A stretch of 42,288 bases of DNA, from IMG/VR virus record IMGVR_UViG_3300027726_000002. One strand, given 5' to 3'. Of this stretch, positions 3,690-42,288 are shown piece after piece (within the stretch, counting starts at the first letter, position 1; the number at the start of each line of letters is the position of its first letter). This stretch comes from a virus. The position numbers and the translations under genes were made by a program. The notes under the pieces were generated by a model that saw nothing but the letters and a program-made list of their open reading frames with translations, searched no databases and was not told the DNA's origin.

Positions 3690-4352
3690 CTAGATTAGCG
3701 CGACCGCGCTAGATACTGCCGCCGCTTGTGCGGCTGTGATTGTGGTCTTGTAAATTGCGATTGCCTGAATAATTCCGCCAAAATATCCACTTGGCGATCC
3801 TGACAAATTCCTGGCAAGGAAGTAAACCTTATACGTATTTGTGCCAGACCATCCAGAAATATTTCCATCGTCTATGCCATTGCGGTATACATCAGTTGGC
3901 GTTATCGCCAGTACCCCAGACGCAAGCCCGGAAGCAACGTTTGCCGAACCGCCCATCCTATAGATAACAACGTTGCTGGTATAGTATGGCGATATTGCAA
4001 ATTCTCGACTAGAAAGAGCCTCGCCAAACAGCCATTGAGTTGAACTGGATGCGGACGAAAACCTTATTACAGCCGACCAAGTTGATTGAGGCACTAGGCC
4101 AGAATCAAGAAATGCCGAAGACGCGTTCCCAATCCAACCATCAGCCCCGAACCCTGGCGCAACGCCATTTCCAACAACCGCAGGATCAAGGTTTGCATAA
4201 CCTTCATCCCCCGCTAATCTCAGGTAGGATGCAGCCAGACTTGCCGCGCCTTTGGGTTGCCATACTCCGGCAACGTCTGCCGCCGCGATGCCGCCTGATA
4301 AATACCAGGCCTCCCCACTAAGGGCATCATGGCCCCGAAACGGATAGCCCAT
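3690..4352 (-). CDS. LamG/concanavalin-A-like jelly-roll protein (putative receptor-binding or carbohydrate-binding)
   Basis: The C-terminal pattern YFLARNLSGSPSGYFGGIIQAIAIYKTTITAAQAAAV resembles the LamG_3 ending (F-G-x-I-x-x-hydrophobic-I-Y-x-x-x-L/I-x-x-x-Q/E). The protein is beta-rich and Ser/Gly-rich. Its start overlaps the upstream stop (TAATG). Confidence 0.45.
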   Translation of the reverse strand: MGYPFRGHDALSGEAWYLSGGIAAADVAGVWQPKGAASLAASYLRLAGDEGYANLDPAVVGNGVAPGFGADGWIGNASSAFLDSGLVPQSTWSAVIRFSSASSSTQWLFGEALSSREFAISPYYTSNVVIYRMGGSANVASGLASGVLAITPTDVYRNGIDDGNISGWSGTNTYKVYFLARNLSGSPSGYFGGIIQAIAIYKTTITAAQAAAVSSAVALI

Positions 4353-4747
4353 TACGCCTCCGAATAATACAACACCTGAACAGCAACGTTCCCAGATGCG
4401 CTTGACCGTACCATCAGTTTTTTATTCGCTGTGTTCAGTTTCATTTTGCCATGCGGGGTGACTTGGATTGATCCATTTGCGGGTAGGTACAGCGTCAGGA
4501 AGATTGTCCCCGCCGTTTCTTCCGAGAAGTCCAATCTCATGGCGGTATCAACTGCCGCAACAATGTCAGTGATCACAAGTTTCTGCCCAGTCGTTGGGGC
4601 GCTGGTCACTGCCGCCACTGCCGCGCTTTGATCGGCGCTGGTAAATCTCGCCTGGCTGGCCAACCCCATCACCGTTGTCCATGCGGGGCCGTTGTCTCTG
4701 ATATTTCCATTCAAGATGTCTTCAACTACAACTCTTCCGAAACTCAT
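4352..4747 (-). CDS. Hypothetical beta-rich protein, 131 aa
   Basis: ATGA overlap with the TerL stop and TAATG overlap with the next gene. No motif recognised. Confidence 0.55.
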   Translation of the reverse strand: MSFGRVVVEDILNGNIRDNGPAWTTVMGLASQARFTSADQSAAVAAVTSAPTTGQKLVITDIVAAVDTAMRLDFSEETAGTIFLTLYLPANGSIQVTPHGKMKLNTANKKLMVRSSASGNVAVQVLYYSEA

Positions 4748-8774: not shown

Positions 8775-8828
8775 CCCCCCCCCACCCGCCGGGCTGCGCA
8801 TGGCATAAACGCAGAGAGAGAGATAACG

Positions 8829-9038
8829 ATGAACGACCAAACCAAGTACAGCGTATGGAGTGACCTCAGCGGAAGATGGATAATCAATAACGCATCATGG
8901 CAAGATGCAATCAACCTGGCGCATTCGAACGTACAGCCATTTCACACTAACCGAGTATGCACGAGAACGTATAACCCGAAGTCTACCGGCTACGATTGCA
9001 CAGAATACTACCGAACCCTACCGAAATACAGAGGATAA
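8829..9038 (+). CDS. Hypothetical 69-aa protein
   Basis: The ATG is preceded by the purine-rich GAGAGAGAGATAACG. No motif recognised. Confidence 0.5.
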   Translation: MNDQTKYSVWSDLSGRWIINNASWQDAINLAHSNVQPFHTNRVCTRTYNPKSTGYDCTEYYRTLPKYRG

Positions 9039-9045
9039 TAACCCA

Positions 9046-9216
9046 ATGAACAAACCCAAGCAGCAAACCATGTTCCAAACAGAGGATCTCCCCCTGTTCA
9101 GTGGCACGGCTCCGACCGTGAAGGACGAGAAGTTTACCCCCACCCCCGTTGTAAAACAGTTGACCCTGGAAGAGAGCAAATCCAATGACCCTACTAACCA
9201 TTGCCCAAGCCTGTGA
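9046..9216 (+). CDS. Hypothetical 56-aa protein
   Basis: This uses an internal ATG of ORF 8905..9216 (MNKPKQQTMFQTEDLPLF), 7 nt after the previous stop and preceded by GAGGATAATAACCCA. Confidence 0.4.
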   Translation: MNKPKQQTMFQTEDLPLFSGTAPTVKDEKFTPTPVVKQLTLEESKSNDPTNHCPSL

Positions 9217-9370
9217 CCACGCAAAACATACCATCACCCCCCGGGGCCTGCGCTTCGCCTGTGCTGCGGGCCATGTCCCCGGCGCTCAGAAGGTTGGCCG
9301 GGATTGGATCCTCCCCTCCGATGGACTGGATCACTACCTCCAGAACAGGCCCAAACCCGGTCGCCACTAA
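9185..9370 (+). CDS. Excisionase/MerR-like HTH protein (putative Xis or regulator)
   Basis: LTIAQACDHAKHTITPRGLRFACAAGHVPGAQKVGRDWILP matches the excisionase-family HTH pattern (helix, then G-x-x-P, basic residue, R-W). It is followed by a terminator. Confidence 0.5.
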   Translation: MTLLTIAQACDHAKHTITPRGLRFACAAGHVPGAQKVGRDWILPSDGLDHYLQNRPKPGRH

Positions 9371-9375
9371 CCCCC

Positions 9376-9401
9376 AGCCCCCCGAAGACGGGGGCTTTTT
9401 T
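9376..9401 (+). terminator. Rho-independent terminator of the plus-strand block
   Basis: A 7-bp stem AGCCCCC/GGGGGCT with a 7-nt loop is followed by TTTTT. It starts 6 nt after the stop codon. Confidence 0.7.
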
Positions 9402-9402
9402 A

Positions 9403-9614
9403 ATGCAGGGTATGCAGGGTATGCAAGGTTATTTAATTTAATATATATATTTTTTAAAATTTTAAAAAAAACTATTTTTAATTAATAAACCCTGCATACC
9501 TTGCATACTATGCATAGTCTAACTATTGTACAGATAGTGTATAAAAATTCATGTCGTTTTCCGACATTTTTCAACCCGTTTCACATTAATAGAATAACCT
9601 TGCATACCTTGCAT
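9403..9614. repeat. Iteron-like 9-mers flanking an AT tract (candidate origin of replication)
   Basis: ATGCAGGGT, ATGCAGGGT and ATGCAAGGT lie in tandem at 9403-9429. The 59-bp tract 9430-9488 contains a single C. Inverted copies ACCCTGCAT, ACCTTGCAT and ACTATGCAT lie at 9489-9515. Two more ACCTTGCAT copies lie at 9597-9614. The region is non-coding, sits between convergent terminators and is next to the primase-helicase gene. Confidence 0.55.
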
Positions 9615-9640: not shown

Positions 9641-11662
9641 TCAAATACTCTTTATTCTCAAGCCATCCCACACCATACCCGCCGGTATCTTACGTCGGGT
9701 AAACCCCAACCTCCGCCAGTCCATAGCAATCGACACGGAAGATTGCGCCTTCGTCCCGTTGTCATCGCACCATGTCCGGTATTGCCGGTATAACTCGCTG
9801 CTCGAAATGCTGAACTCCCGCCCCCGGATGCAGCACTCATCCACGAACACAGCCGGGATGTCGTTCGTCATCTGGAATAGACTGGTGGCATCGACTACCG
9901 ATTGCGGGATGTCAAACCCGCCATTCGCCTGGAGCCGGATCAACCCAGCCAATGCCCAGTTGAGTATCCCGCTCCCCTCTGTGCGGATAGTCAACTTGAC
10001 ATGCGGATTTCGCACCCCGCCTGGCAGTTCGGAAAACTCCACCACCTTCACCCGCCGGAATAGCCCATTGCTACCATCTCCCACCCGGGGCAGTTCATTC
10101 ATGGCCCAGCAGATTTTAGCATTAGATTGGATGGTGATTGGATCCCTAAACTTGCGGTCAACTGTCACCGATTCCCCACTGATCAAAGCGTTGACAATAT
10201 CCGTGGCCTGCATGTAAGTACTCGGTTGCTCCGTGCTTACCAGCAAAGTTTTATCCGGCAAGTCGGTCATACTAAAGCGGGATTTCTCCAGGTCTTTCAG
10301 CCCCAGCAGCCCCGCCCGTGTCCCTAACATGGCCTGCAACCCCTCGATATAGGTGCTTTTGCCGCTCCCCGCCGGACCATACAGCCACACAGCCAGCTCA
10401 TACTGGGTATCAATCGTCAACGCGTACCCGGCAAAGTCCTGTAGGAATTGCTCTTTGCCATTCAAAATCGTCTTGCAGTAATAATCCCAGGTGGGCGCAG
10501 TGGCATCCGGGTCATAGTCATAAGCCACCCCCGCTGTCAGGTAGTGGCTCTTATCGTGGGCGATCAATGTCATGGTCGGGATGTGCAATGTCCCGTTCTT
10601 GCATACGATCAAATCCTTATTGCTATTCCAGTTTTCGATTTCCACATTGGTTTTGATCCGGGCAATCTCCATGATGCTACGCAATTTCCAGGAGGTTGGC
10701 TTATACCCGTCCCGCTTTGCCTCCTCCATGATGTGCAGCAGCTCCAGTTCCACCCGGTCACGCGGGATAATCGGCCAACATCCCCCCGCATACCGCCGGA
10801 ATTCGCCCAACCCATAGGCGGTGTCTGGGTAGTTCTTCAGCCACAACGCCGCCAGTTCATCATCGGTTGGCACACTCCCCGCCGCATACCGCCCCACGCT
10901 ATTGGCGATCTTGCTCACCTCGCTGTCATCCAGAGGCGGGGCGCAGTATACCCGGTTATGCTCCCGCAATGCCGCCTCGATTGCGCTGGCGTCCAACCCC
11001 GCCCGGCGCATCCTCCCCGCCATCGTAGTCAGCGCGGTATTCCGTCCCCCCGCAGTGGAGTATTTCTTGGTGGTTGGCGCATCGGTCTTCTTTGCCACAT
11101 CCTTCCCCCCGATCAACGTGGATAACCACTCCGGCGCAGGCTGGGCAGTGTTCCCATCCGGTTCGCTGCTCGCCTCCCATTCGTACAGTCGCCCGCTCAT
11201 GTGATTGCTGGGTGGGAGGACAACAAACCCGCCATCCCCCCGGATGTCAATCCCCTGGCCGGGGTGGTTGGCGCGGGATTTCACCGCCTGGGCATAGGCG
11301 AAAAACAAATGTCGCCCCCCGCCTCCGGTCTGGCTCTCGATGGTGGCCTGCAATCGCCCGTGTTTCTGCTCCAGCAAGTCCAGGCTTTCATCCCCGCCAT
11401 GCCGGGGGTCGATGTCCAGCACCCACACCCCCGATACAGCACCCGTAGCCATCCCGATATTCGCGTCCGGCCATTGTCGCCACCACTTGTCAACCTGGGT
11501 GGTGTCTGTGGTCGCGTCGCTGATCCCGTGCATTGTGCGCGGGTGTTTACCTGGGCTGTCACAACTTTTCCCACACGTACAATGTCCGTTGGCAATGTTG
11601 TGTACCGGGAATATCGCCCATCCTTTTTGCGCGTACGTCAGTGCAGCAGTGTAGTTTGTCAA
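9641..11662 (-). CDS. Bifunctional primase-polymerase (Prim-Pol) fused to PriCT and D5/P4-type SF3 helicase
   Basis: The N-terminus has GWAIFPV, GKHPR, NIGMATGAVSGVWVLDIDPRHGG, TGGGGRHLFFAY and GIDIRGDGGFVVLPPSNH, which are Prim-Pol signatures. The middle has GGRNTALTTMAGRMRRAGL...DDSEVSKIANSV (PriCT-like). The C-terminus has the Walker A LYGPAGSGKST. The listed start is TTG. Confidence 0.9.
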   Translation of the reverse strand: MTNYTAALTYAQKGWAIFPVHNIANGHCTCGKSCDSPGKHPRTMHGISDATTDTTQVDKWWRQWPDANIGMATGAVSGVWVLDIDPRHGGDESLDLLEQKHGRLQATIESQTGGGGRHLFFAYAQAVKSRANHPGQGIDIRGDGGFVVLPPSNHMSGRLYEWEASSEPDGNTAQPAPEWLSTLIGGKDVAKKTDAPTTKKYSTAGGRNTALTTMAGRMRRAGLDASAIEAALREHNRVYCAPPLDDSEVSKIANSVGRYAAGSVPTDDELAALWLKNYPDTAYGLGEFRRYAGGCWPIIPRDRVELELLHIMEEAKRDGYKPTSWKLRSIMEIARIKTNVEIENWNSNKDLIVCKNGTLHIPTMTLIAHDKSHYLTAGVAYDYDPDATAPTWDYYCKTILNGKEQFLQDFAGYALTIDTQYELAVWLYGPAGSGKSTYIEGLQAMLGTRAGLLGLKDLEKSRFSMTDLPDKTLLVSTEQPSTYMQATDIVNALISGESVTVDRKFRDPITIQSNAKICWAMNELPRVGDGSNGLFRRVKVVEFSELPGGVRNPHVKLTIRTEGSGILNWALAGLIRLQANGGFDIPQSVVDATSLFQMTNDIPAVFVDECCIRGREFSISSSELYRQYRTWCDDNGTKAQSSVSIAMDWRRLGFTRRKIPAGMVWDGLRIKSI

Positions 11663-14367: not shown

Positions 14368-15021
14368 TTAGCGGGGGGGTTGCAACTCGCTCAGCCTGAC
14401 CCCTGCTATATCTCGCATGGTTGCTGCGCCCGTTCGCGTTAGGCGCGTTCCTGAAAACGTGGAACTAGGATTTTTCATCTCCGCCAGTCCCCTGGCAAGC
14501 ATTTCGTCAATGATGATCTTGTACTCTCGCTTTGAAAACGGTCTGCCCGATCCTGTCCAGTCGTCTACCGTCAGTGGAACTCCGTGTACAAGACCGGTCG
14601 CAAATTCCTTGAGTTTCTCTGGCGCTCCTGGCAACCGGGCTATGGTCTCATGCGTCCCGTCTGGGCTGATGATCCTGATGGTCTGGACTGGCTCCGGCTG
14701 GCCAACGTATGTATCCTGGTTGATGTCCAATCCCGTCCACCCTTCGATCTTGTACACCCAGCGATTCCATCGGTACAAAGAATAGAACCACGCAACCATC
14801 TGGACGCCAGTGAACGCTATTGCAGTAGCCTCCCAATGTTTCGGCCAGCCTGCGACCAACCATAATGTCAATACGAATAGCGCAACGAATACTCCCGCCC
14901 CTATCGCCTGAAGCGCCGGATAAACGAAGGCGACCTCGCGCGTGTGGAGATAGGCGTTGTCTGTAACCACGCCAACGCGCTGGTCAATCACTTGGTCATC
15001 GGTGTTAGCCGTGTAAGACAT
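14368..15021 (-). CDS. Membrane protein (2 TM) with C-terminal winged-helix-like domain
   Basis: TMs are AIGAGVFVALFVLTLWLVAGW and AIAFTGVQMVAWFYSLY. The C-terminus KREYKIIIDEMLARGLAEMKNPSSTFSGTRLTRTG is wHTH-like. SD AAGGTGAAGG. Confidence 0.55.
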   Translation of the reverse strand: MSYTANTDDQVIDQRVGVVTDNAYLHTREVAFVYPALQAIGAGVFVALFVLTLWLVAGWPKHWEATAIAFTGVQMVAWFYSLYRWNRWVYKIEGWTGLDINQDTYVGQPEPVQTIRIISPDGTHETIARLPGAPEKLKEFATGLVHGVPLTVDDWTGSGRPFSKREYKIIIDEMLARGLAEMKNPSSTFSGTRLTRTGAATMRDIAGVRLSELQPPR

Positions 15022-15571
15022 CCTTCACCTTGCCGTTCCCGTTCTTCCGCTCCGCCAACCGCCGGTACATTGTGCGTTGACTGACACCCTCCGCCGCCGC
15101 CAGTTCTGCAACTGACAACTTTTCGCCAACTGTCACCTTTGGCGTGTCAGTGACAGTTTCCGTGTCAGGCTGCTTTGCCTTTCTTGTCGTGGATTGCGGG
15201 TCAACTTTCGCCAGCCATGCCAGACTTGCAATAAGCAGCGGGATTGGCGCAGCCAGCCATATATCCCCGCCGTAGTATCGCCAGTGATAGGCGAAGCTGA
15301 TGGCAGTCATGACAATCGCAAATGTCCAGCGTGTCACAATTTGACCGGTCTTGCCGCCATCGTACCTGGCGGCAGCGCGCACCCATCTGTAGTGGCCCAA
15401 GTCCACTAACAGACCGATGATAACTGCGACAAACCAATGGTCACGCCCATTCAGCACCACCGCATAGTGGACTGCGCTTACGATGACCATGACCAAGACC
15501 AAGTCGCCATGCTCTAGCCAGTTGATGGCGGCATTCAGGGCGGCTCCCAGAAACGTGGTGATGGATTTCAC
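15005..15571 (-). CDS. Membrane protein (about 4 TM, DUF2637-like architecture) with C-terminal HTH
   Basis: The GTG 15571 start overlaps the upstream TGA (GTGA). Four hydrophobic segments are followed by LSVAELAAAEGVSQRTMYRRLAERK (HTH). Confidence 0.5.
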   Translation of the reverse strand: MKSITTFLGAALNAAINWLEHGDLVLVMVIVSAVHYAVVLNGRDHWFVAVIIGLLVDLGHYRWVRAAARYDGGKTGQIVTRWTFAIVMTAISFAYHWRYYGGDIWLAAPIPLLIASLAWLAKVDPQSTTRKAKQPDTETVTDTPKVTVGEKLSVAELAAAEGVSQRTMYRRLAERKNGNGKVKDVLHG

Positions 15572-15837
15572 TTGAACACCAGCACGGCCCGATCTTCGAA
15601 ATACGTCTTTCGGCGGCACATTGGGCAACATTCGGCGTGATAATACCGGTCGCCGATCATGTGGACCCGATCCTCGTCTTGCGCCTCTTCTTCGGTCAGG
15701 GGCTTGCCGCATTCGTAGCATTCGTATTCCGGTACGTCTACTGCGTATAAGTCTGTCATCGTCCTGATCTCCTCTTCCAAACACACACAGTCATCATCAT
15801 CATCCGCTTCCAAGACCAGTTCACAAACATGCCACAC
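15568..15837 (-). CDS. Small zinc-ribbon protein
   Basis: CYECGKPL and HAECCPMCRRK are Cys pairs. An alternative start at ATG 15759 (MTDLYAV) has the SD GAGGAG. Confidence 0.5.
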   Translation of the reverse strand: MWHVCELVLEADDDDDCVCLEEEIRTMTDLYAVDVPEYECYECGKPLTEEEAQDEDRVHMIGDRYYHAECCPMCRRKTYFEDRAVLVFK

Positions 15838-16225
15838 TCTCCATCTCCGACGCCATCAGCCATTCGCTTATGTCATACCCCCGCTTGCTGTCCATGTTCC
15901 ATCCGCGTGGCATAGAATCAACCGGGCCGCAGGCATAGTCCCCCGGCTGGGGGTGTCTTTTCGCCTCTCGTCTGTACCTGGCTTCCGCCTTACATCGGTC
16001 GCTGCAATAGACCTGGTTGTGCTGCGTTATAGGATCCCCGCATATCACACACGGGTGAGTCGGGGGCGTGTAGCACTTCCTCGCATGGTACGCTCTGTTG
16101 ACCCGCTGCCGTTGCCGCTCCGCCGAACATTGATCACACCACATCTTCCGGGTGGATATCTCCGCGCCACATCCCTTGCATTTCTTTTCGCCGGGTAGAT
16201 ATTTGGCTCTCGTTTTGCGTTTCAT
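15821..16225 (-). CDS. Double zinc-ribbon, Arg/Lys-rich protein
   Basis: From ATG 16225 (ATGA overlap). Cys pairs: CKGCG...CDQC and CVICG...CSDRC. Confidence 0.55.
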   Translation of the reverse strand: MKRKTRAKYLPGEKKCKGCGAEISTRKMWCDQCSAERQRQRVNRAYHARKCYTPPTHPCVICGDPITQHNQVYCSDRCKAEARYRREAKRHPQPGDYACGPVDSMPRGWNMDSKRGYDISEWLMASEMESVACL

Positions 16226-16365
16226 TTCTCCCATCCCATTTTTCGGATCACGACTCGCATGACTTCTTTCCATTCTTCTTGGGTAAGTGGCTGGCTGCCT
16301 TTGTTCATGTCGTGTATCTTTGTCAGCAGTTCTCGGATGGCTTCTCGGATTAAGTCTGCTCTCAT
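16222..16365 (-). CDS. Hypothetical 47-aa helical protein
   Basis: ATG 16365 is preceded by a strong SD (AAGGAGTAATCTT). Its stop forms an ATGA overlap with the next gene. MRADLIREAIRELLTKIHDM. Confidence 0.55.
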   Translation of the reverse strand: MRADLIREAIRELLTKIHDMNKGSQPLTQEEWKEVMRVVIRKMGWEK

Positions 16366-16369
16366 AAGA

Positions 16370-16522
16370 TTACTCCTTGCCTCGCATTGCCGTGCCTGGC
16401 CATGCCGAGCCCCGCCAAGCAGAGCCTGGCCTGGCCTCGCCCAGCCTGGCCTTGCCACACCCTGCCCCGCCGTGCCGAGCCCAGCCCAGCAGAGTTATTT
16501 CAGGCTTGCGATAATTGCTCAT
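16370..16522 (-). CDS. Candidate 50-aa protein made of A-[R/W]-x-G-x pentapeptide units (reads pentanucleotide array A)
   Basis: MSNYRKPEITLLGWARHGGAGCGKARLGEARPGSAWRGSAWPGTAMRGKE. Its ATG lies 1 nt after the upstream TAA, and its TAA lies inside the SD of the next gene. Coding status is unproven because every frame is open here. Confidence 0.35.
   Translation of the reverse strand: MSNYRKPEITLLGWARHGGAGCGKARLGEARPGSAWRGSAWPGTAMRGKE
16376..16490. repeat. Pentanucleotide array A: 23 phased units CNNGC
   Basis: cttgc ctcgc attgc cgtgc ctggc catgc cgagc cccgc caagc agagc ctggc ctggc ctcgc ccagc ctggc cttgc cacac cctgc cccgc cgtgc cgagc ccagc ccagc. 22/23 units end in GC and 21/23 start with C. 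There is no phase slip. G+C is 86/115. Confidence 0.9.
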
Positions 16523-16523
16523 C

Positions 16524-16664
16524 TTACCCTTGCCAAGCCCCGCCCAGCCAAGCCGTGCCGAGCCTTGCCTTGCCGTGCCCCGCCACGCAACGCCCCGCCG
16601 CGCCTTGCCAAGCCTCGCCATGCCTAGCACCGCCTAGCCGAGCCCAGCCGCGTTCTTCCATCAT
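16524..16664 (-). CDS. Candidate 46-aa protein made of A-[R/W]-x-G-x pentapeptide units (reads pentanucleotide array B)
   Basis: MMEERGWARLGGARHGEAWQGAAGRCVAGHGKARLGTAWLGGAWQG. ATG 16664 forms an ATGA overlap with the stop of the Cas4-like nuclease gene. It reads the shared GGCTGGGCTCGGC in the same frame as the 50-aa candidate (GWAR). Below the ORF-track cutoff. Confidence 0.35.
   Translation of the reverse strand: MMEERGWARLGGARHGEAWQGAAGRCVAGHGKARLGTAWLGGAWQG
16529..16648. repeat. Pentanucleotide array B: 24 phased units CNNGC
   Basis: cttgc caagc cccgc ccagc caagc cgtgc cgagc cttgc cttgc cgtgc cccgc cacgc aacgc cccgc cgcgc cttgc caagc ctcgc catgc ctagc accgc ctagc cgagc ccagc. 24/24 units end in GC and 22/24 start with C. 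G+C is 89/120, with 60 C and 29 G on the plus strand. Confidence 0.9.
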
Positions 16665-17386
16665 CTACCCCTACACTTCTGCCAAAAATCACAGAACGTC
16701 GGGCAGCACTTCCAGCTAACGGGGTTCAACGGAAACACCTCTTTTTCGATCCCGTCCCATACCCTCTTAATCATCTCGTGAATGAACAGGATTTCCCCCG
16801 GTCGATGGGCAAACTCAAATACTTTCAGGGTCGGGGGTTTTTTCGTAATCACATAATGTCTAAACTTCAAATCAGTCACCTTCTCCCCCGCCTGGTTGAG
16901 AGCCGCAAGGTAGAAAAGGGGCTGAATTTCATTCTCCGCCCTGTCGTTCGTCCAGGGCTTCGCCGATGTCTTGAAGTCGCCGGGGATACCATCTTCCGTG
17001 ATGATGTCAATGTACCCGATCACCGGCACAGGCACACCCTTCACCGCCAGTTCCACCTTACGTTCGATGGACTTGGGGCGGATGGTGTTAAGTCCATATA
17101 GTACCTTCGGGTCGGTCAGGATTTGAATACCCTCGTTATAATGCTGCTCTGCGGTATCCAATCCCCAGGCCACTTGCCCCGCGGTCGCCTTCGTCCACTG
17201 CTCCGCCCATGTTTTCAGGATGGGGTCGTGGGTCTTGACGTAATCCTCAATCGTGTTGTGGATCGCGCTCCCGAATACCAGGGCGGGGGTGGTGTAAGTG
17301 GTCTCTTTGGCAATGTACTTCCTGCGCCAGCTTTCCGGGCAGGCGAGGTACATGCTGATGGATGAGTAGGATAGGTGGTCGATCAT
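16661..17386 (-). CDS. Cas4/RecB-like PD-(D/E)XK exonuclease with Fe-S Cys cluster
   Basis: An N-terminal Cys (YLACPESW), the nuclease core IGYIDIITEDGIPGDFKTS (D...D/E-x-K), QPLFYLAAL (QxxxY) and the C-terminal Cys-rich CCPTFCDFWQKC. Confidence 0.8.
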   Translation of the reverse strand: MIDHLSYSSISMYLACPESWRRKYIAKETTYTTPALVFGSAIHNTIEDYVKTHDPILKTWAEQWTKATAGQVAWGLDTAEQHYNEGIQILTDPKVLYGLNTIRPKSIERKVELAVKGVPVPVIGYIDIITEDGIPGDFKTSAKPWTNDRAENEIQPLFYLAALNQAGEKVTDLKFRHYVITKKPPTLKVFEFAHRPGEILFIHEMIKRVWDGIEKEVFPLNPVSWKCCPTFCDFWQKCRGR

Positions 17387-17508
17387 TTCAACCTCATTTG
17401 CTTATCCGCCGCGCTGGATACTCCGCACATGCCAGCGACAAAAATTCCAATCGCCAATCCGCCTATCGCTATACAGGTTGCGGCGCAATAAATAATTAGT
17501 GATGTCAT
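17383..17508 (-). CDS. 41-aa single-TM peptide
   Basis: MTSLIIYCAATCIAIGGLAIGIFVAGMCGVSSAADKQMRLK. SD GGAGAAGAAGAAG. Its TGA overlaps the nuclease ATG (ATGA). Below the ORF-track cutoff. Confidence 0.45.
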   Translation of the reverse strand: MTSLIIYCAATCIAIGGLAIGIFVAGMCGVSSAADKQMRLK

Positions 17509-17541
17509 CTTCTTCTTCTCCAGTTATTAGATAATTTCTAA

Positions 17542-17760
17542 TCACTGCCCAGGCCGTTCGCTTCTAGCCTTGACAGGGCTAATCACAATCGTGGCGGGGG
17601 TCATAAACGTAAACTTATAGCTGGCTTTGTAGGTCAGGTCGCTTATGCGTTGCGCGCTCGCCTTTGTTACCATGCGAGTTGGCGAGTATGGTTCTTCCGC
17701 TCCGTAGTGGTAGAACCATGCCGTATTAGTCAATGCGTCATAATACAATTCTCTGTCCAT
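17542..17760 (-). CDS. Hypothetical 72-aa protein
   Basis: The ATG is preceded by AGAGAGAAAGGATGACAAG. No motif recognised. Confidence 0.5.
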   Translation of the reverse strand: MDRELYYDALTNTAWFYHYGAEEPYSPTRMVTKASAQRISDLTYKASYKFTFMTPATIVISPVKARSERPGQ

Positions 17761-17873
17761 CTTGTCATCCTTTCTCTCTTTCGCCCAGACTACCGTCTAT
17801 TGCGTCGGTGTCCAGTCGGCGCAAGCCCGCATGTCACGGGTAGCCCAGGCAGTTGAGTTATAAGGCAATCGGG

Positions 17874-18797
17874 TTACTCTTCCGCCCCGTAGTCATCTGC
17901 GGCTTTCTGTTCTTCGTATGCCATCCTCCCGGTCAATCTCGCCGCCACCGCTGCAATCTCTTCATCGCTGGTGGGGATATTCCCCCCGTTGGCTTCCAAT
18001 ACCGCCTCCGCGCCGTATTCCTCCAGCAGTTTGTCCAGGATAATTCCCGGAATAGGCTGCGCCGGGGTGAAGTTCACATCCTCACTCGGCTCAGGCAGTG
18101 GCCTCTCGGCCGGCTTTTCACCAGACGCCAGCCATTCTTTCACCTTACCGATAAACTCCGGGCCTGGAAACTCCATCTTCATATCCGATACCGCCGTGCA
18201 GCGGGACTTGCTCACCGTCATAATGTGCGCCCAATCCATATCCGCAACGATGTCAAACTCATACTCAAAGCCGGGGCGCTGAATGGGCGCCATCCCGATT
18301 TTACGGATCACCGTCTTACCATTGCTGTCCACTTCCTGCACATACTCAATCCGGCTGCGCATGGTGGTGATGACATGGCATGGGCTTTGCAGGATCGCGT
18401 CCACCATCCGGTTGTGAATGGGGGTGACATGCCGCCATGCGCTCCAGCTCTCACCCACCCGCTGTTTGATTTCCAGCGCGCCGCCTACCCCTTCCCACGC
18501 GTGGGAGAGTGAGTCGATTATCAGCACTTGATAGCCCATCTTGCCCGCCGCTTCGATTGCCGCCGTGTACTTCTCCGGGCTGAAACTGGTCAACTCGACC
18601 ACATCAAAATCCCAGGGGATACCGTCCGGGCTGTCACCCACATACTTGGACGCGCTCCCCCGCTCCGAGTCGATGAATGCAATCCGACCACCCAGGGCAT
18701 GCGCAAATCTCAATGCGGTGTAGGTCTTCCCGCTTCCCGCCGGGCCATCAATCGTCATTCTCAGTTTGCTTTGACTTCTGGTTGCTTTCCTAAACAT
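17874..18797 (-). CDS. AAA_24 / Sak4-like RecA-fold ATPase (recombination)
   Basis: Walker A MTIDGPAGSGKTYTA, followed by IAFIDSERGSASKY and Walker B-like VLIIDSLSHAW. It lies between an ERCC4 nuclease and a Cas4-like exonuclease. Confidence 0.75.
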   Translation of the reverse strand: MFRKATRSQSKLRMTIDGPAGSGKTYTALRFAHALGGRIAFIDSERGSASKYVGDSPDGIPWDFDVVELTSFSPEKYTAAIEAAGKMGYQVLIIDSLSHAWEGVGGALEIKQRVGESWSAWRHVTPIHNRMVDAILQSPCHVITTMRSRIEYVQEVDSNGKTVIRKIGMAPIQRPGFEYEFDIVADMDWAHIMTVSKSRCTAVSDMKMEFPGPEFIGKVKEWLASGEKPAERPLPEPSEDVNFTPAQPIPGIILDKLLEEYGAEAVLEANGGNIPTSDEEIAAVAARLTGRMAYEEQKAADDYGAEE

Positions 18798-19563
18798 TGC
18801 TGCCCATCCTCTCCAAAACTTTCAACACTTCCTCATCCCTGTTGTTCATCCATATTTCAAGGATTTGCCGATCTTTCAATCCCAACACTGCCCGGATTCG
18901 CTTGCGGGTATTCTCCGGTAGTGGCGCTTCGATCTCCAAATCCACAATGCCAGCCAGCGCATGGGCGGGGATGTTGGCAGACCAGCGCATCAGTTCAATC
19001 ACCCGCTCTGGTCCAATCCCAGGCAAACTCGCCAAAAACGCCGCCCCAGGGCCTAACATCACCGCTGGCCGGGGGGGTAAAATCTTCTGCACACCATCCC
19101 GTTCCCGGCTTCCCAGGCTGATGATGGTCTTCTCAAATTCCGTATCACCACAAAAGACAACAAATACCCCCATCTCCTGGATGCTTAACAATGCGCCCAT
19201 CACCGCCCCATAAGACCAGCCGGTGACGCCCCGCTCGGTCATCACCTTACCATTCGGGCCGGGGGATAACTGCCCGCAAATCAGCAGGTAGGGCCAGGAG
19301 GTTGGCGGGTAGCCTGCCAGTTGTTGGGTGAGCCGCTCATCCGATAGCCGGGTCATCTGTGGGAATAGGCGCTCTTCTTTCAGCGTGTTCAGCAAATCGT
19401 CCGGCGTCTTGCGCTCCACCACCAGGGTATGCCCGTCGCTGGTGATGGCTTTGATGTCGCATTCCTCCAGCATCGTGACCGAGGTTGGCGCGCCGCCAAA
19501 TGTCAGACCTTGCACCCAGTCCGGCTCCCGACTGTCAACGAGTACTGCTTCAATGCGCGCCAT
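18790..19563 (-). CDS. ERCC4 (XPF/Mus81/Hef-type) structure-specific nuclease with C-terminal HhH
   Basis: VLVDSRE, then VVERKTPDDLLNTLKEERLFPQ (the ERKxxxD signature), and a C-terminal LASLPGIGPERVIELM (helix-hairpin-helix). Confidence 0.75.
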   Translation of the reverse strand: MARIEAVLVDSREPDWVQGLTFGGAPTSVTMLEECDIKAITSDGHTLVVERKTPDDLLNTLKEERLFPQMTRLSDERLTQQLAGYPPTSWPYLLICGQLSPGPNGKVMTERGVTGWSYGAVMGALLSIQEMGVFVVFCGDTEFEKTIISLGSRERDGVQKILPPRPAVMLGPGAAFLASLPGIGPERVIELMRWSANIPAHALAGIVDLEIEAPLPENTRKRIRAVLGLKDRQILEIWMNNRDEEVLKVLERMGSNV

Positions 19564-19702: not shown

Positions 19703-19884
19703 TTCGGCACCTCGCAAAAGATATTCTTGGTGGTCTTCATGTCCAGGACGTAGACAACTTCCGGTGCTTTCTGATACCGTGCAAAGTAGGCGCTGATCGC
19801 GTCTTCAATCGAACCGCCGGGATAGCCTCGCAAGTTCTCATGGGGCGGTAGTTTGTTCGGGTTGTCCAACTTGATAACTTTCAT
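19699..19884 (-). CDS. Hypothetical 61-aa protein
   Basis: ATG 19884 (MKVIKLDNPNK) forms an ATGA overlap with the stop of the pentapeptide-repeat gene. Confidence 0.5.
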   Translation of the reverse strand: MKVIKLDNPNKLPPHENLRGYPGGSIEDAISAYFARYQKAPEVVYVLDMKTTKNIFCEVPK

Positions 19885-20318
19885 TGTTCGTCTTCTCCCA
19901 GCCACTTCACGGCATCTTTGATCCATTTGCCATAGCGTTCGATCTCGGCTTCGGTGTATCCGTTCACCTCGCCAATCTTGATGTAGTGTTTTAGCCAATG
20001 CTTGTAGGTATGGCGTTCGCATCCAATGGAGATGTACCCGCCAGCAGCTATGGCAGTGTGCTTGCCAGCGCCGAATATTGAGAAACTTCCTGTAGCTCCG
20101 CGCAGGTCACTCCAGCGTAGGTCAATCCCGTCAAGTTTCGCATCGCTTAATTCAGCCCCGTATAACACACAGCAGGATAGATTAGCTCTGGTCAAATTAC
20201 TCTTTCTCAAGTCAACACCACTCAGATCAACTGCGTACAGGTCGGCTCCATGCAGATCGGGTATTTCCCCTTCCTCGCGTGCCTTTCTGATAATCTCAAT
20301 AACTTCTTCTCTGTCCAT
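19881..20318 (-). CDS. Pentapeptide-repeat protein (about 10 A(D/N)LXX units) with a 70-aa C-terminal domain
   Basis: GADLY AVDLS GVDLR KSNLT RANLS CCVLY GAELS DAKLD GIDLR WSDLR. The start is taken at ATG 20318 (MDREEV) with SD GGAGAGGA. Confidence 0.8.
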   Translation of the reverse strand: MDREEVIEIIRKAREEGEIPDLHGADLYAVDLSGVDLRKSNLTRANLSCCVLYGAELSDAKLDGIDLRWSDLRGATGSFSIFGAGKHTAIAAGGYISIGCERHTYKHWLKHYIKIGEVNGYTEAEIERYGKWIKDAVKWLGEDEQ

Positions 20319-20378
20319 GTTCGTCCTCTCCCATTGGTGCGGGTGGTCAGGATCATTCCCAACCACCCTACCCCGATA

Positions 20379-21994: not shown

Positions 21995-22081
21995 TGTCTT
22001 CCCCCTATAGAAAACTGTGATATAATCATCTCGTTCGTCCTTCCTAATCCTTCCCGCTCCCCTTGCAAAGGCCGGGAGGGA

Positions 22082-22252
22082 TTATTTGTTAAGTTCTTTC
22101 TCTGCTACTTGCCGAATGTTCCGCCGCATTTGCTCCATTTGCACAAGCCAGCGAAGTTGGTCAATCAAACTGCGCTGATCCTGCTTGGCAATTTCTTCCA
22201 ATCCTGCTTTAGTGTCTGTGTCAATGTAGATCGTTGTCCGATTATTATTCAT
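22082..22252 (-). CDS. Ribbon-helix-helix (CopG/Arc-like) regulator, 56 aa; Cro analogue by position
   Basis: MNNNRTTIYIDTDTKAGLEEIAKQDQRSLIDQLRWLVQMEQ has the beta-strand, helix, helix pattern of RHH proteins. SD GGAGGTGAC. It is divergent from the CI-like gene. Below the ORF-track cutoff. Confidence 0.65.
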   Translation of the reverse strand: MNNNRTTIYIDTDTKAGLEEIAKQDQRSLIDQLRWLVQMEQMRRNIRQVAEKELNK

Positions 22253-22295
22253 GTCACCTCCGCTTACAAGTTGTGTAACTCGTTATCTACAAGTA

Positions 22296-22324
22296 AATAT
22301 ACCAAACAACTTGTGACTTGTCAA
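22296..22324 (-). promoter_or_regulatory. Early promoter (PR-like) for the RHH gene and early operon
   Basis: The minus strand reads TTGACA (plus 22319-22324), a 17-nt spacer and TATATT (plus 22296-22301). ACAAGT/ACTTGT hexamers at 22266, 22289, 22309 and 22316 overlap the -35 and spacer and flank the -10. Confidence 0.55.
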
Positions 22325-22340
22325 GACATTTGTCTAGTTT

Positions 22341-22355
22341 TGGTAGAATAGAAAT
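22341..22355 (+). promoter_or_regulatory. Extended -10 promoter giving a leaderless CI-like transcript (PRM-like)
   Basis: TGgTAGAAT (TG at 22341-22342, -10 at 22344-22349) is followed by 6 nt and then ATG 22356. There is no SD upstream, although almost every other gene has a GGAG-type SD. Confidence 0.45.
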
Positions 22356-22700
22356 ATGTTTCAAGCATGGTTTATCAGGAAGTATAAAGAGTGGTCTGGG
22401 GATAAGATTGGAATTGAGGCAAGCGAAACAGAATTCGCCCGGTGGTTGGGCATTACTCAGCAAACAGTAAATTATTATTTGAACGGGGTTTTTGTACCCA
22501 AAAGGAAAGACATCCTCAAACGTTTGGCCGATAAACTTGGGGATGAAGTCTATGAAATATTAGACCAGCCAACTGATAAAGAAAAGATTATGCTGATACT
22601 GGATCAAATTCCTCCCCAAGAATATCCCCGTTTGATTGAGGAATTGAAGAGACACTATCGGGTCTCTCCACTAAATAAGACTGATCCCCCAGATGAATGA
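22356..22700 (+). CDS. CI-like HTH (XRE family) repressor
   Basis: ETEFARWLGITQQTVNYYLNGVFVP is a classic XRE HTH. The gene is divergent from the RHH gene and on the same strand as the integrase. Confidence 0.7.
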   Translation: MFQAWFIRKYKEWSGDKIGIEASETEFARWLGITQQTVNYYLNGVFVPKRKDILKRLADKLGDEVYEILDQPTDKEKIMLILDQIPPQEYPRLIEELKRHYRVSPLNKTDPPDE

Positions 22701-22812
22701 CAACCATATCTGGACAAATCAGCCGGGCAGTCACGTTGCCCGCTTCGATGACTGTGGCTTTTCCCTCAAATAACAGGGCAAGCCTGCTTAGGAATGTTTC
22801 TATGGTGTCCAT
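22588..22812 (-). CDS. Questionable 74-aa ORF convergent with and overlapping the repressor 3' end
   Basis: The ATG is preceded by TATAAT-N6 (leaderless geometry, plus 22819-22824). It overlaps 113 nt of the repressor gene and has no motif. Confidence 0.25.
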   Translation of the reverse strand: MDTIETFLSRLALLFEGKATVIEAGNVTARLICPDMVVIHLGDQSYLVERPDSVSSIPQSNGDILGEEFDPVSA

Positions 22813-22840
22813 TTTACAATTATATCAGAATTAATGTTCT

Positions 22841-23041
22841 ATGAATAAGTGGAAATCTTCTTCTCTCGGATTGCTTCTGGGTGTGCTGATGTCAACTTGC
22901 ATCACCATAGGTAACATTATGATTGCCACTGCTCCAGTCTATTTGATAGAGCTGGGGATTAACTTCATCGTCAACATCTGCATCTATGCATTGGTCTTCA
23001 CGCTCCTGGTCACACTTTACCGACGCGTGACAAAGACATGA
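22841..23041 (+). CDS. Small 2-TM membrane protein (lysogeny-module moron; possible superinfection exclusion)
   Basis: LGLLLGVLMSTCITIGNIMIA and INFIVNICIYALVFTLLVTLY. It appears noticeably more AT-rich than its neighbours by eye. It sits between the repressor and attP/int. Confidence 0.55.
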   Translation: MNKWKSSSLGLLLGVLMSTCITIGNIMIATAPVYLIELGINFIVNICIYALVFTLLVTLYRRVTKT

Positions 23042-23231: not shown

Positions 23232-24194
23232 GTGGTTCGTAAATCACCCAACCGGGGGGCGCTTACCTTGAAACTGTCCGCCGCCATCCAGGGCTTTAAG
23301 ATCGTCCGCCTTGCCGATGGATATTCCCCGGCCACCCTTGCTGTCTACCAGTGGGCGCTGGAAAGATTGCAGTGGTATCTGGATAATCCCGAAGTCGATC
23401 AAATCACAGAACAGAACGTTCAATCCTTCTTCGCATTCCTACGAACGGACTATGATCCCCCACTGGCCGGCGCGTCCATCGAAAACGTTTGGAAGGCCGT
23501 CCGCTCATTCTACAATTGGGCCAGCGATACCCTGCCAATTCACCGTCCAGATAGCAGGATACCCCGCCCGCGTTATGCTCAGGAAGAAATCCAGCCCTAT
23601 ACACGGGAGGAAGTGAAGGCATTGCTCCGGGCCTGCGAGTACACCACCCTCGCCCTCAGTATGCGCCGCAAGTCGTTTGCAATGAAACGCCCGACCGCTT
23701 TTCGAGATCGGGCAATTGTGCTGCTCCTGCTGGATACCGGGGTAAGGGCAAGTGAGTTATGTCGTTTGACTTATAAGGACATCAACTTAGAATCGGGAAC
23801 GGTTCATATCCAGGCGTTCGGGTCTGGCAGGAAGACGAAATCCAGGACGGTGTACTTTCAGAAACATTCCCGGGCTGCGCTGTGGAAGTATCTTTCCTCT
23901 CAGCCACAAACAACATTTCTGTTTACCACTTCCACCCTTGCCACGCTCAATCGCGGCAGTCTCTATCACATGATTGATGCGCTGGGAGAACGCTCAGGGG
24001 TGCTGTCCGCAAATGTCCATAAGTTCCGCCACACCTTTGCCATTCAATACCTGCGCAATGGGGGGGATGTCTTCACGCTTCAACGTCTGCTGGGCCATGC
24101 GTCGCTGGAGATGGTCAGGCGTTATCTGTCTCTGGCAGATAATGACGCTGCCTCTGTGCATAAGGGCGCTTCTCCGGTGGATAACTGGCTTTAG
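23232..24194 (+). CDS. int: Tyrosine recombinase / phage integrase
   Basis: DTGVRASEL (Arg I), HKFRHTFAIQYL (HxxR), LLGHASLEMVRRYL (His and the catalytic Tyr), and an N-terminal SAM-like domain (YSPATLAVYQWALERL). The listed start is GTG, so the exact start is uncertain. Confidence 0.9.
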   Translation: MVRKSPNRGALTLKLSAAIQGFKIVRLADGYSPATLAVYQWALERLQWYLDNPEVDQITEQNVQSFFAFLRTDYDPPLAGASIENVWKAVRSFYNWASDTLPIHRPDSRIPRPRYAQEEIQPYTREEVKALLRACEYTTLALSMRRKSFAMKRPTAFRDRAIVLLLLDTGVRASELCRLTYKDINLESGTVHIQAFGSGRKTKSRTVYFQKHSRAALWKYLSSQPQTTFLFTTSTLATLNRGSLYHMIDALGERSGVLSANVHKFRHTFAIQYLRNGGDVFTLQRLLGHASLEMVRRYLSLADNDAASVHKGASPVDNWL

Positions 24195-41968: not shown

Positions 41969-42288
41969 TTATGGGTTCCAGCGTACAATTGATCCAGCAA
42001 CGCCGGATTGTGTGCCTGCGCTGCTATCTCCACCATGAAACTTCTGTAGCATGTAGTTGAGCGCCGCTATTCTATATTGCGCTCTGTCTTTGTTGAGTTT
42101 GCCGCTGGCAATCCCCTGTTCCATCTGCGAGATTTGCGCCTGTATTTTCTCTACCGATGGGATGTCCTCCGGCTTCATCGCCTGTCCAGAACCGTGCTTA
42201 CCGCTTTTCCCGCCTTTTTGCCCATACGGTCCGGGCGTCCCAATCGGCTGTCCCCATTGGTTCATTGTGTTGCTGTAGGTTCCATCAG
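41969..42288 (-). CDS. 3' part of the junction-spanning 243-aa gene (see 1..539)
   Basis: The frame is open from 42288 down to the TAA at 41969-41971. The track ORF (42265 start) is only the last 98 codons. C-terminal sequence: ...SVEKIQAQISQMEQGIASGKLNKDRAQYRIAALNYMLQKF. Confidence 0.75.
   Translation of the reverse strand, partial: DGTYSNTMNQWGQPIGTPGPYGQKGGKSGKHGSGQAMKPEDIPSVEKIQAQISQMEQGIASGKLNKDRAQYRIAALNYMLQKFHGGDSSAGTQSGVAGSIVRWNP
42162..42288. repeat. Exact 127-bp terminal direct repeat, copy 2
   Basis: Identical to 1-127. Confidence 0.9.

Follow-up and report, generated by a model that had tools for sequence, protein, structure and literature searches.

The 42,288-nt IMG/VR virus record IMGVR_UViG_3300027726_000002, analysed here over its whole length (the window), carries two tracts of 23 and 24 phased pentanucleotides (arrays A and B) inside its minus-strand early operon. 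On that strand the units read GGCNN, with the first three bases almost invariant and the last two variable. To judge by this anatomy, the tracts are very likely arrays of the vrRNA type, the guide RNAs of VIPR (for Viral Interference Programmable Repeat) systems. No gene for the VIPR effector, Vipr, was detected in the complete genome, and the arrays are therefore orphans. In all likelihood they act through a Vipr encoded by another element, as guides or as a decoy. The analysis establishes the sequence class of the tracts, their strand orientation, their non-coding nature, the homology to published Vipr of the protein that adjoins such arrays in other phages, and the absence of the effector gene here. 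A preceding reading of the same DNA, made from its letters alone (the sequence-only reading), had described the arrays without being able to match them to any phage element; their organisation is that of the vrRNAs reported in two 2026 preprints.

VIPR systems associate Vipr, a ~20-kDa ancestral RAMP protein, with vrRNAs (bioRxiv 10.64898/2026.04.26.720920, 10.64898/2026.04.26.720927). The latter contain 9-16 (or more) YNNGG repeats with a conserved GGY and a hypervariable NN, and they are located in long intergenic sequences flanking vipr, the systems being found mostly in phages and prophages. Vipr displays an RRM core, a thumb, and a G-loop, and an accessory gene, vap, encodes a DNA-binding protein, a nuclease or a helicase. 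Each repeat, with its two guanines and its pyrimidine flipped into protein pockets, is bound by a single Vipr protomer (companion preprint of the pair), and vrRNA transcripts co-purify with Vipr. Double-stranded DNA is recognised through the NN dinucleotides, one base in three of the target being skipped; the published target rule asks for an NN match of at least 80%, the skipped base falling on codon wobble positions. Satellites, prophage regulators, and other VIPR systems serve as natural targets, without self-targeting. Hammerhead and staggered architectures have been described for vrRNAs. The survey began from the Vipr protein and noted that vrRNAs of their own are found in some satellites (10.64898/2026.04.26.720920, 10.64898/2026.04.26.720927).

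The array region of the window is composed of the following elements, in the order of transcription:

16649-16660, minus strand: short leader separating array B from the nuclease stop codon, sense ...TGGAAGAACGC, resembling the sequence 5' of array A (TGAAATAACTCTGC)
16529-16648, minus strand: array B, 24 phased units, (GGCNN)24, two units being TGC; transcribed first
16491-16528, minus strand: AT-rich spacer of 38 nt between the arrays, sense GGTAAGATGAGCAATTATCGCAAGCCTGAAATAACTCT
16376-16490, minus strand: array A, 23 phased 5-nt units, (GGCNN)23, two units being TGC and one GGT
16363-16375, minus strand: junction 3' of array A, GGAGTAATCTTATG, with a Shine-Dalgarno (SD)-like AAGGAG overlapping the last unit, a TAA, then the ATG of a 47-aa gene

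Unit counts bear out the sequence-only description of two strictly phased arrays of 23 and 24 units: neither contains a phase slip, nor any of the 4-nt GGCA units found in other members of the family. Read on the plus strand, all 47 units carry C as their fifth base, 46 carry G as the fourth, and 43 carry C as the first (A in the other four), so that the earlier figures of 46 units ending in GC and 43 starting with C stand. In the GGCNN sense, Y of GGY is a pyrimidine in all 47 units (C in 46, T in one) and the first guanine is kept in 43/47, which amounts to five deviations over 141 GGY positions (four G1-to-T, one C-to-T). The NN series, 5' to 3', is TG TG TC AC GG AG GT AA CA TG GA CA CA TC TT GG TC AT CA AC AA GA AA in array A and TG TC TA GG TA AT GA TT AA GC GG GT GT GG AC AA AA TC AC TT TG GG TT AA in array B. 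Of the 16 possible dinucleotides 13 are used in array A and 12 in array B, and the two series are nearly all different. Both arrays thus display what defines a vrRNA repeat, at least nine tandem GGY-NN units with GGY conserved and NN variable. They are not CRISPR arrays, in which direct repeats of 23-50 nt alternate with unique spacers of comparable length: the unit is 5 nt long, two of its bases vary, and no such alternation is seen. The G+C content is 74.8% in array A and 74.2% in array B, and the plus strand of array B holds 60 C and 29 G, in line with the ~75% and ~2:1 skew first reported along with the 38-nt AT-rich spacer.

The phasing is unique within the genome. A score for GG every 5 nt reaches 9/9 at two sites only in the 42-kb window, arrays A and B, both on the minus strand, and at most 5/9 in 20 shuffles of the window. 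The comparison of period-5 with period-3 spectral power, proposed with the sequence-only reading, yields summed period-5 values of 12.9 (array A) and 12.0 (array B) for period-3 values of 0.22 and 0.25, a ratio of ~50, whereas the neighbouring nuclease gene has a period-3 power of 8.0 and a period-5 power of 0.47. Misassembly, raised at the same time, is very unlikely to lie behind the arrays, because four Logan assemblies from separate runs (SRR5468423, SRR28346265, SRR5468437, and SRR28346268) are 100% identical over the region. The minimum free energy fold of the array tract has a z of -3, made of in-register GC/GC pairs, and is uninformative. No tRNA or ribozyme processing signals were found in the window, and no sigma-70-like promoter beside the arrays.

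A duplication had been suggested for the two arrays. They share the start sequence GGCTGGGCTCGGC, they are offset by 153 nt, and both end with GGCAAGG(G/A)GTAA..ATGAG. The similarity of the flanks is only suggestive: the spacer weakly resembles the sequence 3' of array A (GGCAAGG-GTAA..ATGAG..TTA(A)TC..AAGCC..CTGCTG), with a local alignment score of 24 for a shuffle mean of 15.4, a score reached by 17 of 500 shuffles. There are hints, therefore, of a tandem duplication of ~153 nt.

Arrays of this class are not restricted to the window. A permissive blastn search with positions 15000-19000 against isolated phages matched only the arrays, at 72-76% similarity, in the cluster F mycobacteriophages Quico, Florinda, and Donkeykong and in cyanophage Cy-LDV1, whose GCCNN tracts are of the same kind and oriented alike with respect to the neighbouring genes. 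A pattern scan of IMG/VR yielded at least 120 contigs with 12 or more phased GCCNN units; the family statistics below were computed on 122-123 loci. Within each locus, all arrays are on one strand. The flanking long open reading frames (ORFs) are both on the GGCNN strand in 60 loci and both on the opposite strand in two, and the element is therefore read as GGCNN in RNA, or at least in the direction of transcription. The window conforms, all genes around the arrays being on the minus strand, the one that reads GGCNN. This strong orientation with transcription and the lack of the cognate effector gene are two points that the sequence-only reading did not contain.

Over 3,694 units of the family, all 16 NN dinucleotides are present, TA at half its expected frequency. 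Units of 4 nt are rare within the arrays; 111 of the 123 such units are GGCA. They are spaced every 8-12 units, as in mycobacteriophages, and are probably the 1-nt-overlap boundaries of staggered vrRNAs. The first NN position is purine-rich across the family (G 36%, A 34%, T 18%, C 12%) and resembles first codon positions, a composition that would fit guides copied from coding sequence.

In 86 of 122 loci the arrays have, as a neighbour, a member of a family of ~200-aa proteins. The distance between the two has a median of 21 nt and never exceeds 727 nt, and the family gene is on the array strand in 87 of 87 Vipr-positive loci. The hidden Markov model (HMM) of this family matches agp039 of phage SUSP1 (E=3.4e-48), a protein of 195 aa encoded between two long intergenic regions containing (GGTNN)n tracts. 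Because of this position, we infer that agp039 is the Vipr of the preprints. At its C-terminal end, the family consensus has a glycine-rich loop (AG..GlGdfRP..fGrF); its members include Quico gp57, Donkeykong gp49, and Cy-LDV1 g34, and a DUF7304 protein is a frequent partner. Uninterrupted runs linked to Vipr reach 29 units. Their terminal unit has AA as NN in 34% of Vipr-linked tracts vs 13% overall, and GG[T/A/G] comes next in 49%. The window arrays likewise end with GGCAA followed by GG[G/A], then the SD and ATG of the gene that follows, and the layout of the junction (array end, short AT-rich stretch, next gene start) is also seen at Vipr-linked arrays elsewhere.

Isolated phages contain 32 Vipr homologues (27 from Mycobacterium and 5 from Gordonia phages), all annotated as "hypothetical protein". 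In mycobacteriophages, the annotated coding sequence of Vipr reaches ~150 nt into the array on its upstream side (747 nt as annotated, for ~600 nt of homology). In one Vipr-positive locus (L009), a hairpin with a loop like that of a tRNA T-arm is found 5' of each GGC-type array (oriented positions ~4270-4313, 4445-4485, and after 4550; example CTGGTGGTTCGACTCCACCAG); the second copy has a different stem, and ARAGORN finds no full tRNA. This hairpin may be a processing signal between vrRNAs, unlike the hammerhead and staggered architectures of the preprint.

With ends (1-127 and 42162-42288) that are identical over 127 bp, the window amounts to a complete genome, of 42,161 bp, which either is terminally redundant or was assembled as a circle. 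It harbors a tyrosine integrase (23232-24194, plus strand) and a helix-turn-helix (HTH) regulator (22356-22700, plus strand), and the phage is temperate. No vipr was found in it by hmmsearch --max over six-frame ORFs of at least 40 aa (best E 1.1), and hhalign comparison of 20 window proteins with Vipr and partner profiles gave probabilities below 1%. A tblastn search of the window with 89 Viprs returned nothing credible, while the control genomes Cy-LDV1 and SUSP1 were matched by 46 and 75 of the 89 queries; a match at 8781-9026 (plus strand, 25% identity) was rejected on inspection as spurious. No G-loop motif is present in a plausible frame of the window, no fam1/DUF7304 homologue exists there, and iterated HMM, PHROG and Pfam scans of the uncharacterised early proteins revealed no cryptic Vipr. 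AlphaFold2 single-sequence models of the two best uncharacterised window proteins reached a predicted local distance difference test score (pLDDT) of 63 (mostly helical, without PDB match) and 44, too poor for fold calls. Vipr-positive loci have the gene within 727 nt of the array; this genome has none beside its arrays. The window locus is thus not a complete VIPR system, its defining effector having been sought and not found.

The genes next to the arrays are the following:

16661-17386, minus strand: PD-(D/E)XK Cas4-like nuclease, upstream neighbour (PF12705, E=3.7e-19, full length); not a Vipr
16222-16365, minus strand: 47-aa ORF, downstream neighbour, with its ATG at 16365-16363
15821-16273, minus strand: zinc-ribbon protein of 134-150 aa, after the 47-aa ORF; matches part of an "HNH endonuclease" PHROG

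The nuclease belongs to a recombination module with an AAA_24 protein (17874-18797) and an ERCC4-like protein (18790-19563). Neither the 47-aa ORF nor the zinc-ribbon protein resembles Vipr or the common partner family fam1/DUF7304, and zinc-ribbon and membrane/HTH proteins are found farther downstream. As possible accessory vap genes, the neighbours offer a PD-(D/E)XK nuclease and a zinc-ribbon protein, which are equally compatible with the recombination module. Homologues of the AAA_24 protein (E=5.6e-61 and 1.7e-36) occur in two IMG/VR phages in which Vipr and arrays lie 1.5-2.5 kb downstream; related early modules thus carry Vipr and arrays after AAA_24, so that the position of the window arrays is typical and the effector is what is missing. 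No close relatives were found through the nuclease gene in IMG/VR or GTDB genomes, an exact-protein look-up returned only 100% identical copies of the phage, and its terminase is at most 31% identical to that of any isolate. With no divergent relatives found in the phage's own lineage, substitution patterns were read from mycobacteriophage relatives of the array class.

The mechanism envisaged is as follows. The arrays would be transcribed with the minus-strand early operon, giving an RNA with (GGCNN)24 and (GGCNN)23. By analogy with the published SUSP1 VIPR, each GGY would be flipped out and gripped by one Vipr protomer, Vipr would polymerise on the RNA, and the exposed NN would pair with double-stranded DNA, skipping every third base, so that genes of competing phages, satellites or prophages would be silenced. 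The Vipr that serves these arrays would have to be made within the same cell by another element, be it a prophage already resident, a phage that co-infects or a defence island of the host. It is an evenly balanced proposition that this vipr-less temperate phage keeps its arrays to parasitise the Vipr of another element, either by reprogramming it against a rival or by titrating it as a decoy. The most likely use would be that of hijacking guides directing a foreign Vipr at a rival, the decoy being the main alternative; guide use is favoured because the NN are diverse and the 3' ends guide-like. Taking the arrays as vrRNA-type, a function in trans as guides is the foremost though tentative choice; a decoy and a recent relic are each rather unlikely, and an unrecognised partner in cis is slightly more doubtful than either.

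Two of the rival explanations do not invoke a guide-type RNA at all. Under one of them, the selected product would be a pair of basic repeat peptides (46 and 50 aa, G-x-A-[R/W/G]-x) coupled to translation of the nuclease, a role put forward by the sequence-only reading. The ORFs it listed do exist: the first overlaps the nuclease stop as ATGA (16661-16664), the second has its ATG 1 nt past the stop of the first, and its own stop (16370-16372) adjoins the SD of the following gene, just after AAGGAG. Gene callers also annotate such ORFs (the 83-aa Logan gene of this phage, Donkeykong gp48, Gorge gp53, BobaPhett gp51, ByChance gp39, and Pippy gp47). However, ORFs in (GGCNN)n are uninformative because the only possible stop is TAG (when NN is TA), as the earlier remark that stops are almost excluded implied, and such a repeat by its very make-up leaves almost all frames open. 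An ATGA overlap and coupling-like signals would accompany any insert in an operon without gaps; as for the second ATG, it may derive from a duplicated gene start, on marginal similarity. The proposal that constraint falls on nucleotides rather than codons is borne out: codon periodicity is lacking (period-3 power of 0.2 vs 8.0 in the neighbouring gene), the invariant bases include third codon positions, homologous tracts differ by non-multiples of 3, and 4-nt units shift the frame. Among mycobacteriophages with Viprs at least 98.5% identical, homologous tracts of 36-66 units (187-340 nt) fall in all three residues modulo 3 between near-identical flanks. The 46- and 86-aa ORFs have no Pfam match, and an RNA function has been demonstrated for the same repeat (10.64898/2026.04.26.720920, 10.64898/2026.04.26.720927). 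Peptides are therefore a very improbable explanation. Even less credible is an element acting as DNA, whether as protein-binding sites repeated every 5 bp (an origin or a partition site) or through G-quadruplexes or R-loops formed by a G-rich non-template strand. The strict 5-bp phasing, the 2:1 G/C strand asymmetry, and the adjoining recombination and replication genes would suit it, yet the family is oriented with transcription and not with a replication feature, and its protein partner is a RAMP that binds RNA rather than an initiator that binds DNA. Runs of just two G are weak quadruplex formers, and the quadruplex reading is not needed given the published recognition of GGY. Transcripts moreover co-purify with Vipr in the published data (10.64898/2026.04.26.720920, 10.64898/2026.04.26.720927). 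What survives of the protein-binding array first proposed is one protein per 5-nt repeat, as published on RNA; DNA sites at half-turn spacing do not.

The other two rivals accept the repeat as vrRNA-type and differ on its use. As an RNA decoy, or anti-VIPR sponge, the 47 early GGC repeats would soak up the protomers of a resident VIPR that would otherwise silence the phage. The complete genome without vipr, the length of the arrays (23-24 repeats, one protomer bound per repeat), their early-operon location, and the lack of a convincing DNA target for the NN code all speak for a decoy, for which phage RNA anti-CRISPRs offer a precedent (PMC10651486). Yet a sponge could be made of simple repeats, whereas the NN are as diverse as in Vipr-linked guide arrays, the 3'-end anatomy is the same as that of bona fide guide arrays, and the absence of targets is weak evidence, obtained with exact seeds only; a decoy is improbable. 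A little less probable again is a recent relic, in which a VIPR-carrying ancestor or recombination partner lost vipr and left functionless arrays. Phage genomes are mosaic, related early modules carry Vipr and arrays in a like neighbourhood, and neither target nor partner was found. Against such decay, only five of 141 GGY positions deviate, although the NN differ almost wholly between the arrays and the spacer has diverged to marginal similarity, which argues for continued constraint on GGC. Furthermore, the tract persists without gaps in an operon whose genes are tightly packed, and Vipr-less arrays exist in ~11 other viral loci, including a GGC array at 31% G+C. A long-dead relic is therefore disfavoured by the strength of the GGC constraint. 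A diversity-generating retroelement, with a (GGCAA)n template repeat mutagenised at A, was rejected, window scans having revealed neither a second array nor a (GGCAA)n template tract; the window proteins scanned (a subset of ORFs) gave no Pfam or PHROG match to a reverse transcriptase.

Several observations weigh against orphan guide arrays as the explanation. Targets were sought under the 1-nt-skip rule, each GGY being replaced by one wildcard, and public collections were searched by exact seeds. The window and 1 Mb of viral loci gave no match above shuffled guides, and no self-target. Exact 10-unit matches to four seeds from both arrays were absent from IMG/VR and from the metagenome collection, as was an exact 11-unit match (array A, units 3-13) from GTDB genomes; seeds of 8 units gave 6-12 matches each, at chance level. 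When these matches were extended, units 3-13 of array A matched an IMG/VR contig (L130, 3872-3903) at 22/22 specified bases, with an estimated p of ~0.02 after multiple testing. There, in an uncharacterised 252-aa ORF, it is the first codon position rather than the wobble position that is skipped. The contig has no relation to the window and no match to the rest of the two arrays; L130 is a weak candidate, to be taken as a lead only. Since the searches used exact seeds only, the missing targets are weak evidence and strongly favour neither guides nor decoy. The anatomy also differs from that of characterised vrRNAs in length, 23-24 units vs 9-16, although similarly long runs occur beside Vipr genes. 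No structured 3' tail like that of SUSP1, and no stable conserved fold or pseudoknot, is evident at the window arrays, and no Rfam family or ribozyme matches them. In addition, the Vipr HMM may not span every published VIPR type, both VIPR sources are preprints of 2026, and production of the orphan-array RNA, its processing, and its binding by Vipr are predictions for a genome with no vipr in cis. A second contig (L157), matching units 14-24 of array B at 21/22, was dismissed as chance: the match lies in an AT-rich giant ORF, with the skip on codon position 1.

The closest known systems are the VIPR vrRNAs of Escherichia phage SUSP1 and of a Pseudomonas fulva prophage. They share with the window arrays the GGY/NN pentanucleotides with invariant GGY and hypervariable NN, the transcribed strand, the intergenic location in a phage early region, the presence of several tandem arrays and, presumably, one protomer per repeat and the 1-nt-skip code. 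In SUSP1, however, Y is mostly T, whereas it is C in the window (T in one unit); the window arrays have 23-24 uninterrupted units instead of 9-16, lack a SUSP1-like structured tail, and stand in a complete genome with neither vipr nor a recognisable vap. The Vipr-linked arrays of the GGC type (Quico gp57, Donkeykong gp49, Cy-LDV1 g34, and at least 86 IMG/VR contigs) have the same GGCNN unit, orientation, GGCAA-GG end, and run length. They differ by a Vipr at most 727 nt off, often a DUF7304 partner and, in many, 4-nt GGCA units, none of which the window has. In anatomy, the arrays are also reminiscent of the (G/U)AG repeats of the Bacillus trp leader, triplets ~2 nt apart, each held by one subunit of the TRAP oligomer, a closed ring that acts in attenuation. 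In contrast to NN, the free nucleotides of the TRAP site carry no code, and there is no homology.

Functionally, the nearest parallel comes from CRISPR and is an analogy only. Virus-borne mini-CRISPR arrays use the host effector against rival viruses (PMC6858448), and RNA anti-CRISPRs (Racrs) mimic CRISPR repeats in phages without cas genes (PMC10651486). In both cases a virus carries guide-type repeats without effector genes, although these are repeat-spacer RNAs rather than GGY/NN and the effectors are others. Genes gp54 of Tweety and gp57 of Che8, two cluster F mycobacteriophages, contain GC-rich 12-bp tetrapeptide repeats in the early right arm (PMC2884959). These are likewise GC-rich and hypervariable, with invariant third codon positions and a copy number that varies between close relatives, but their period is 12, they lie within a protein with conserved N- and C-termini, and they have no GGY/NN motif.

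The repeat kind itself is known from the 2026 preprints; what is new here is the occurrence of effector-less vrRNA arrays in a complete phage genome. With the oddity of the repeat explained, its orphan status raises the question of guide piracy versus decoy. Well-kept arrays without an effector suggest that VIPR guide RNAs can travel and act apart from Vipr, as viral mini-arrays and RNA anti-CRISPRs are separated from their effectors. If so, guide piracy or anti-VIPR activity would add a layer to phage-phage conflict and, together with the ~11 other Vipr-less arrays, the window arrays would form a class of effector-less VIPR "free riders". Such a class would escape the published survey because this started from Vipr proteins. 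The ~300 nt of RNA are also a small, concrete test object for a GGC-type Vipr.

The ~11 further vrRNA-like arrays without Vipr were counted in loci that extend 2 kb or more to either side of the array, and one of them is a GGC array in a locus of 31% G+C. Three other Vipr-less loci were discarded as plain microsatellites, and no alternative partner protein common to the Vipr-less loci was found. Two Vipr-less GGC-type arrays (L082, 6687-6756, and L066, 2234-2303) form sharp compositional islands in loci of 31% and 43% G+C, respectively. In L091 (3321-3493, Vipr-less), each successive array is followed by a conserved short sequence, GGGCACCAAAGGTGC, and in L122 (7587-7730, Vipr-less) each is preceded by one, GGTCGCAATGATTGTCCGAGGAGA; they may serve a trans-supplied partner as a tail or handle.

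In public phage records, vrRNA tracts are mis-annotated as protein genes or left unannotated, and the Vipr homologues of mycobacteriophages, related Gordonia phages, and one cyanophage bear the label "hypothetical protein". Genes are called across vrRNA-type arrays in L003 (2918-3304), L167 (553-717), L170 (548-712), L172 (554-712), L174 (514-702), and L124-L126, examples being the annotated genes named above, among them Donkeykong gp48 and the 83-aa Logan gene of this phage.

Three other regions of the window deserve mention. Short tandem repeats are found at 9040-9614 (ATGCAGGGT three times, ACCATGCAT three times, ACCTTGCAT twice, and a 13-mer 2.3 times), in a region of ~1.2 kb that lacks a convincing gene and lies immediately upstream of the gene for the primase/helicase (9641-11662, minus strand); by its repeats, it looks like an iteron-type origin or a regulatory region. 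A pentapeptide-repeat protein (19881-20366, minus strand; PF00805, E=1e-13) is encoded in the early operon beside the ERCC4-like and AAA_24 genes. Proteins of the pentapeptide-repeat fold are often DNA mimics, and by analogy an anti-defence role is possible. Finally, the G+C content drops to 42% at 22001-23000, compared with ~54% elsewhere, at the divergent junction of the minus-strand early operon and the plus-strand HTH and integrase genes, which is probably the immunity region.

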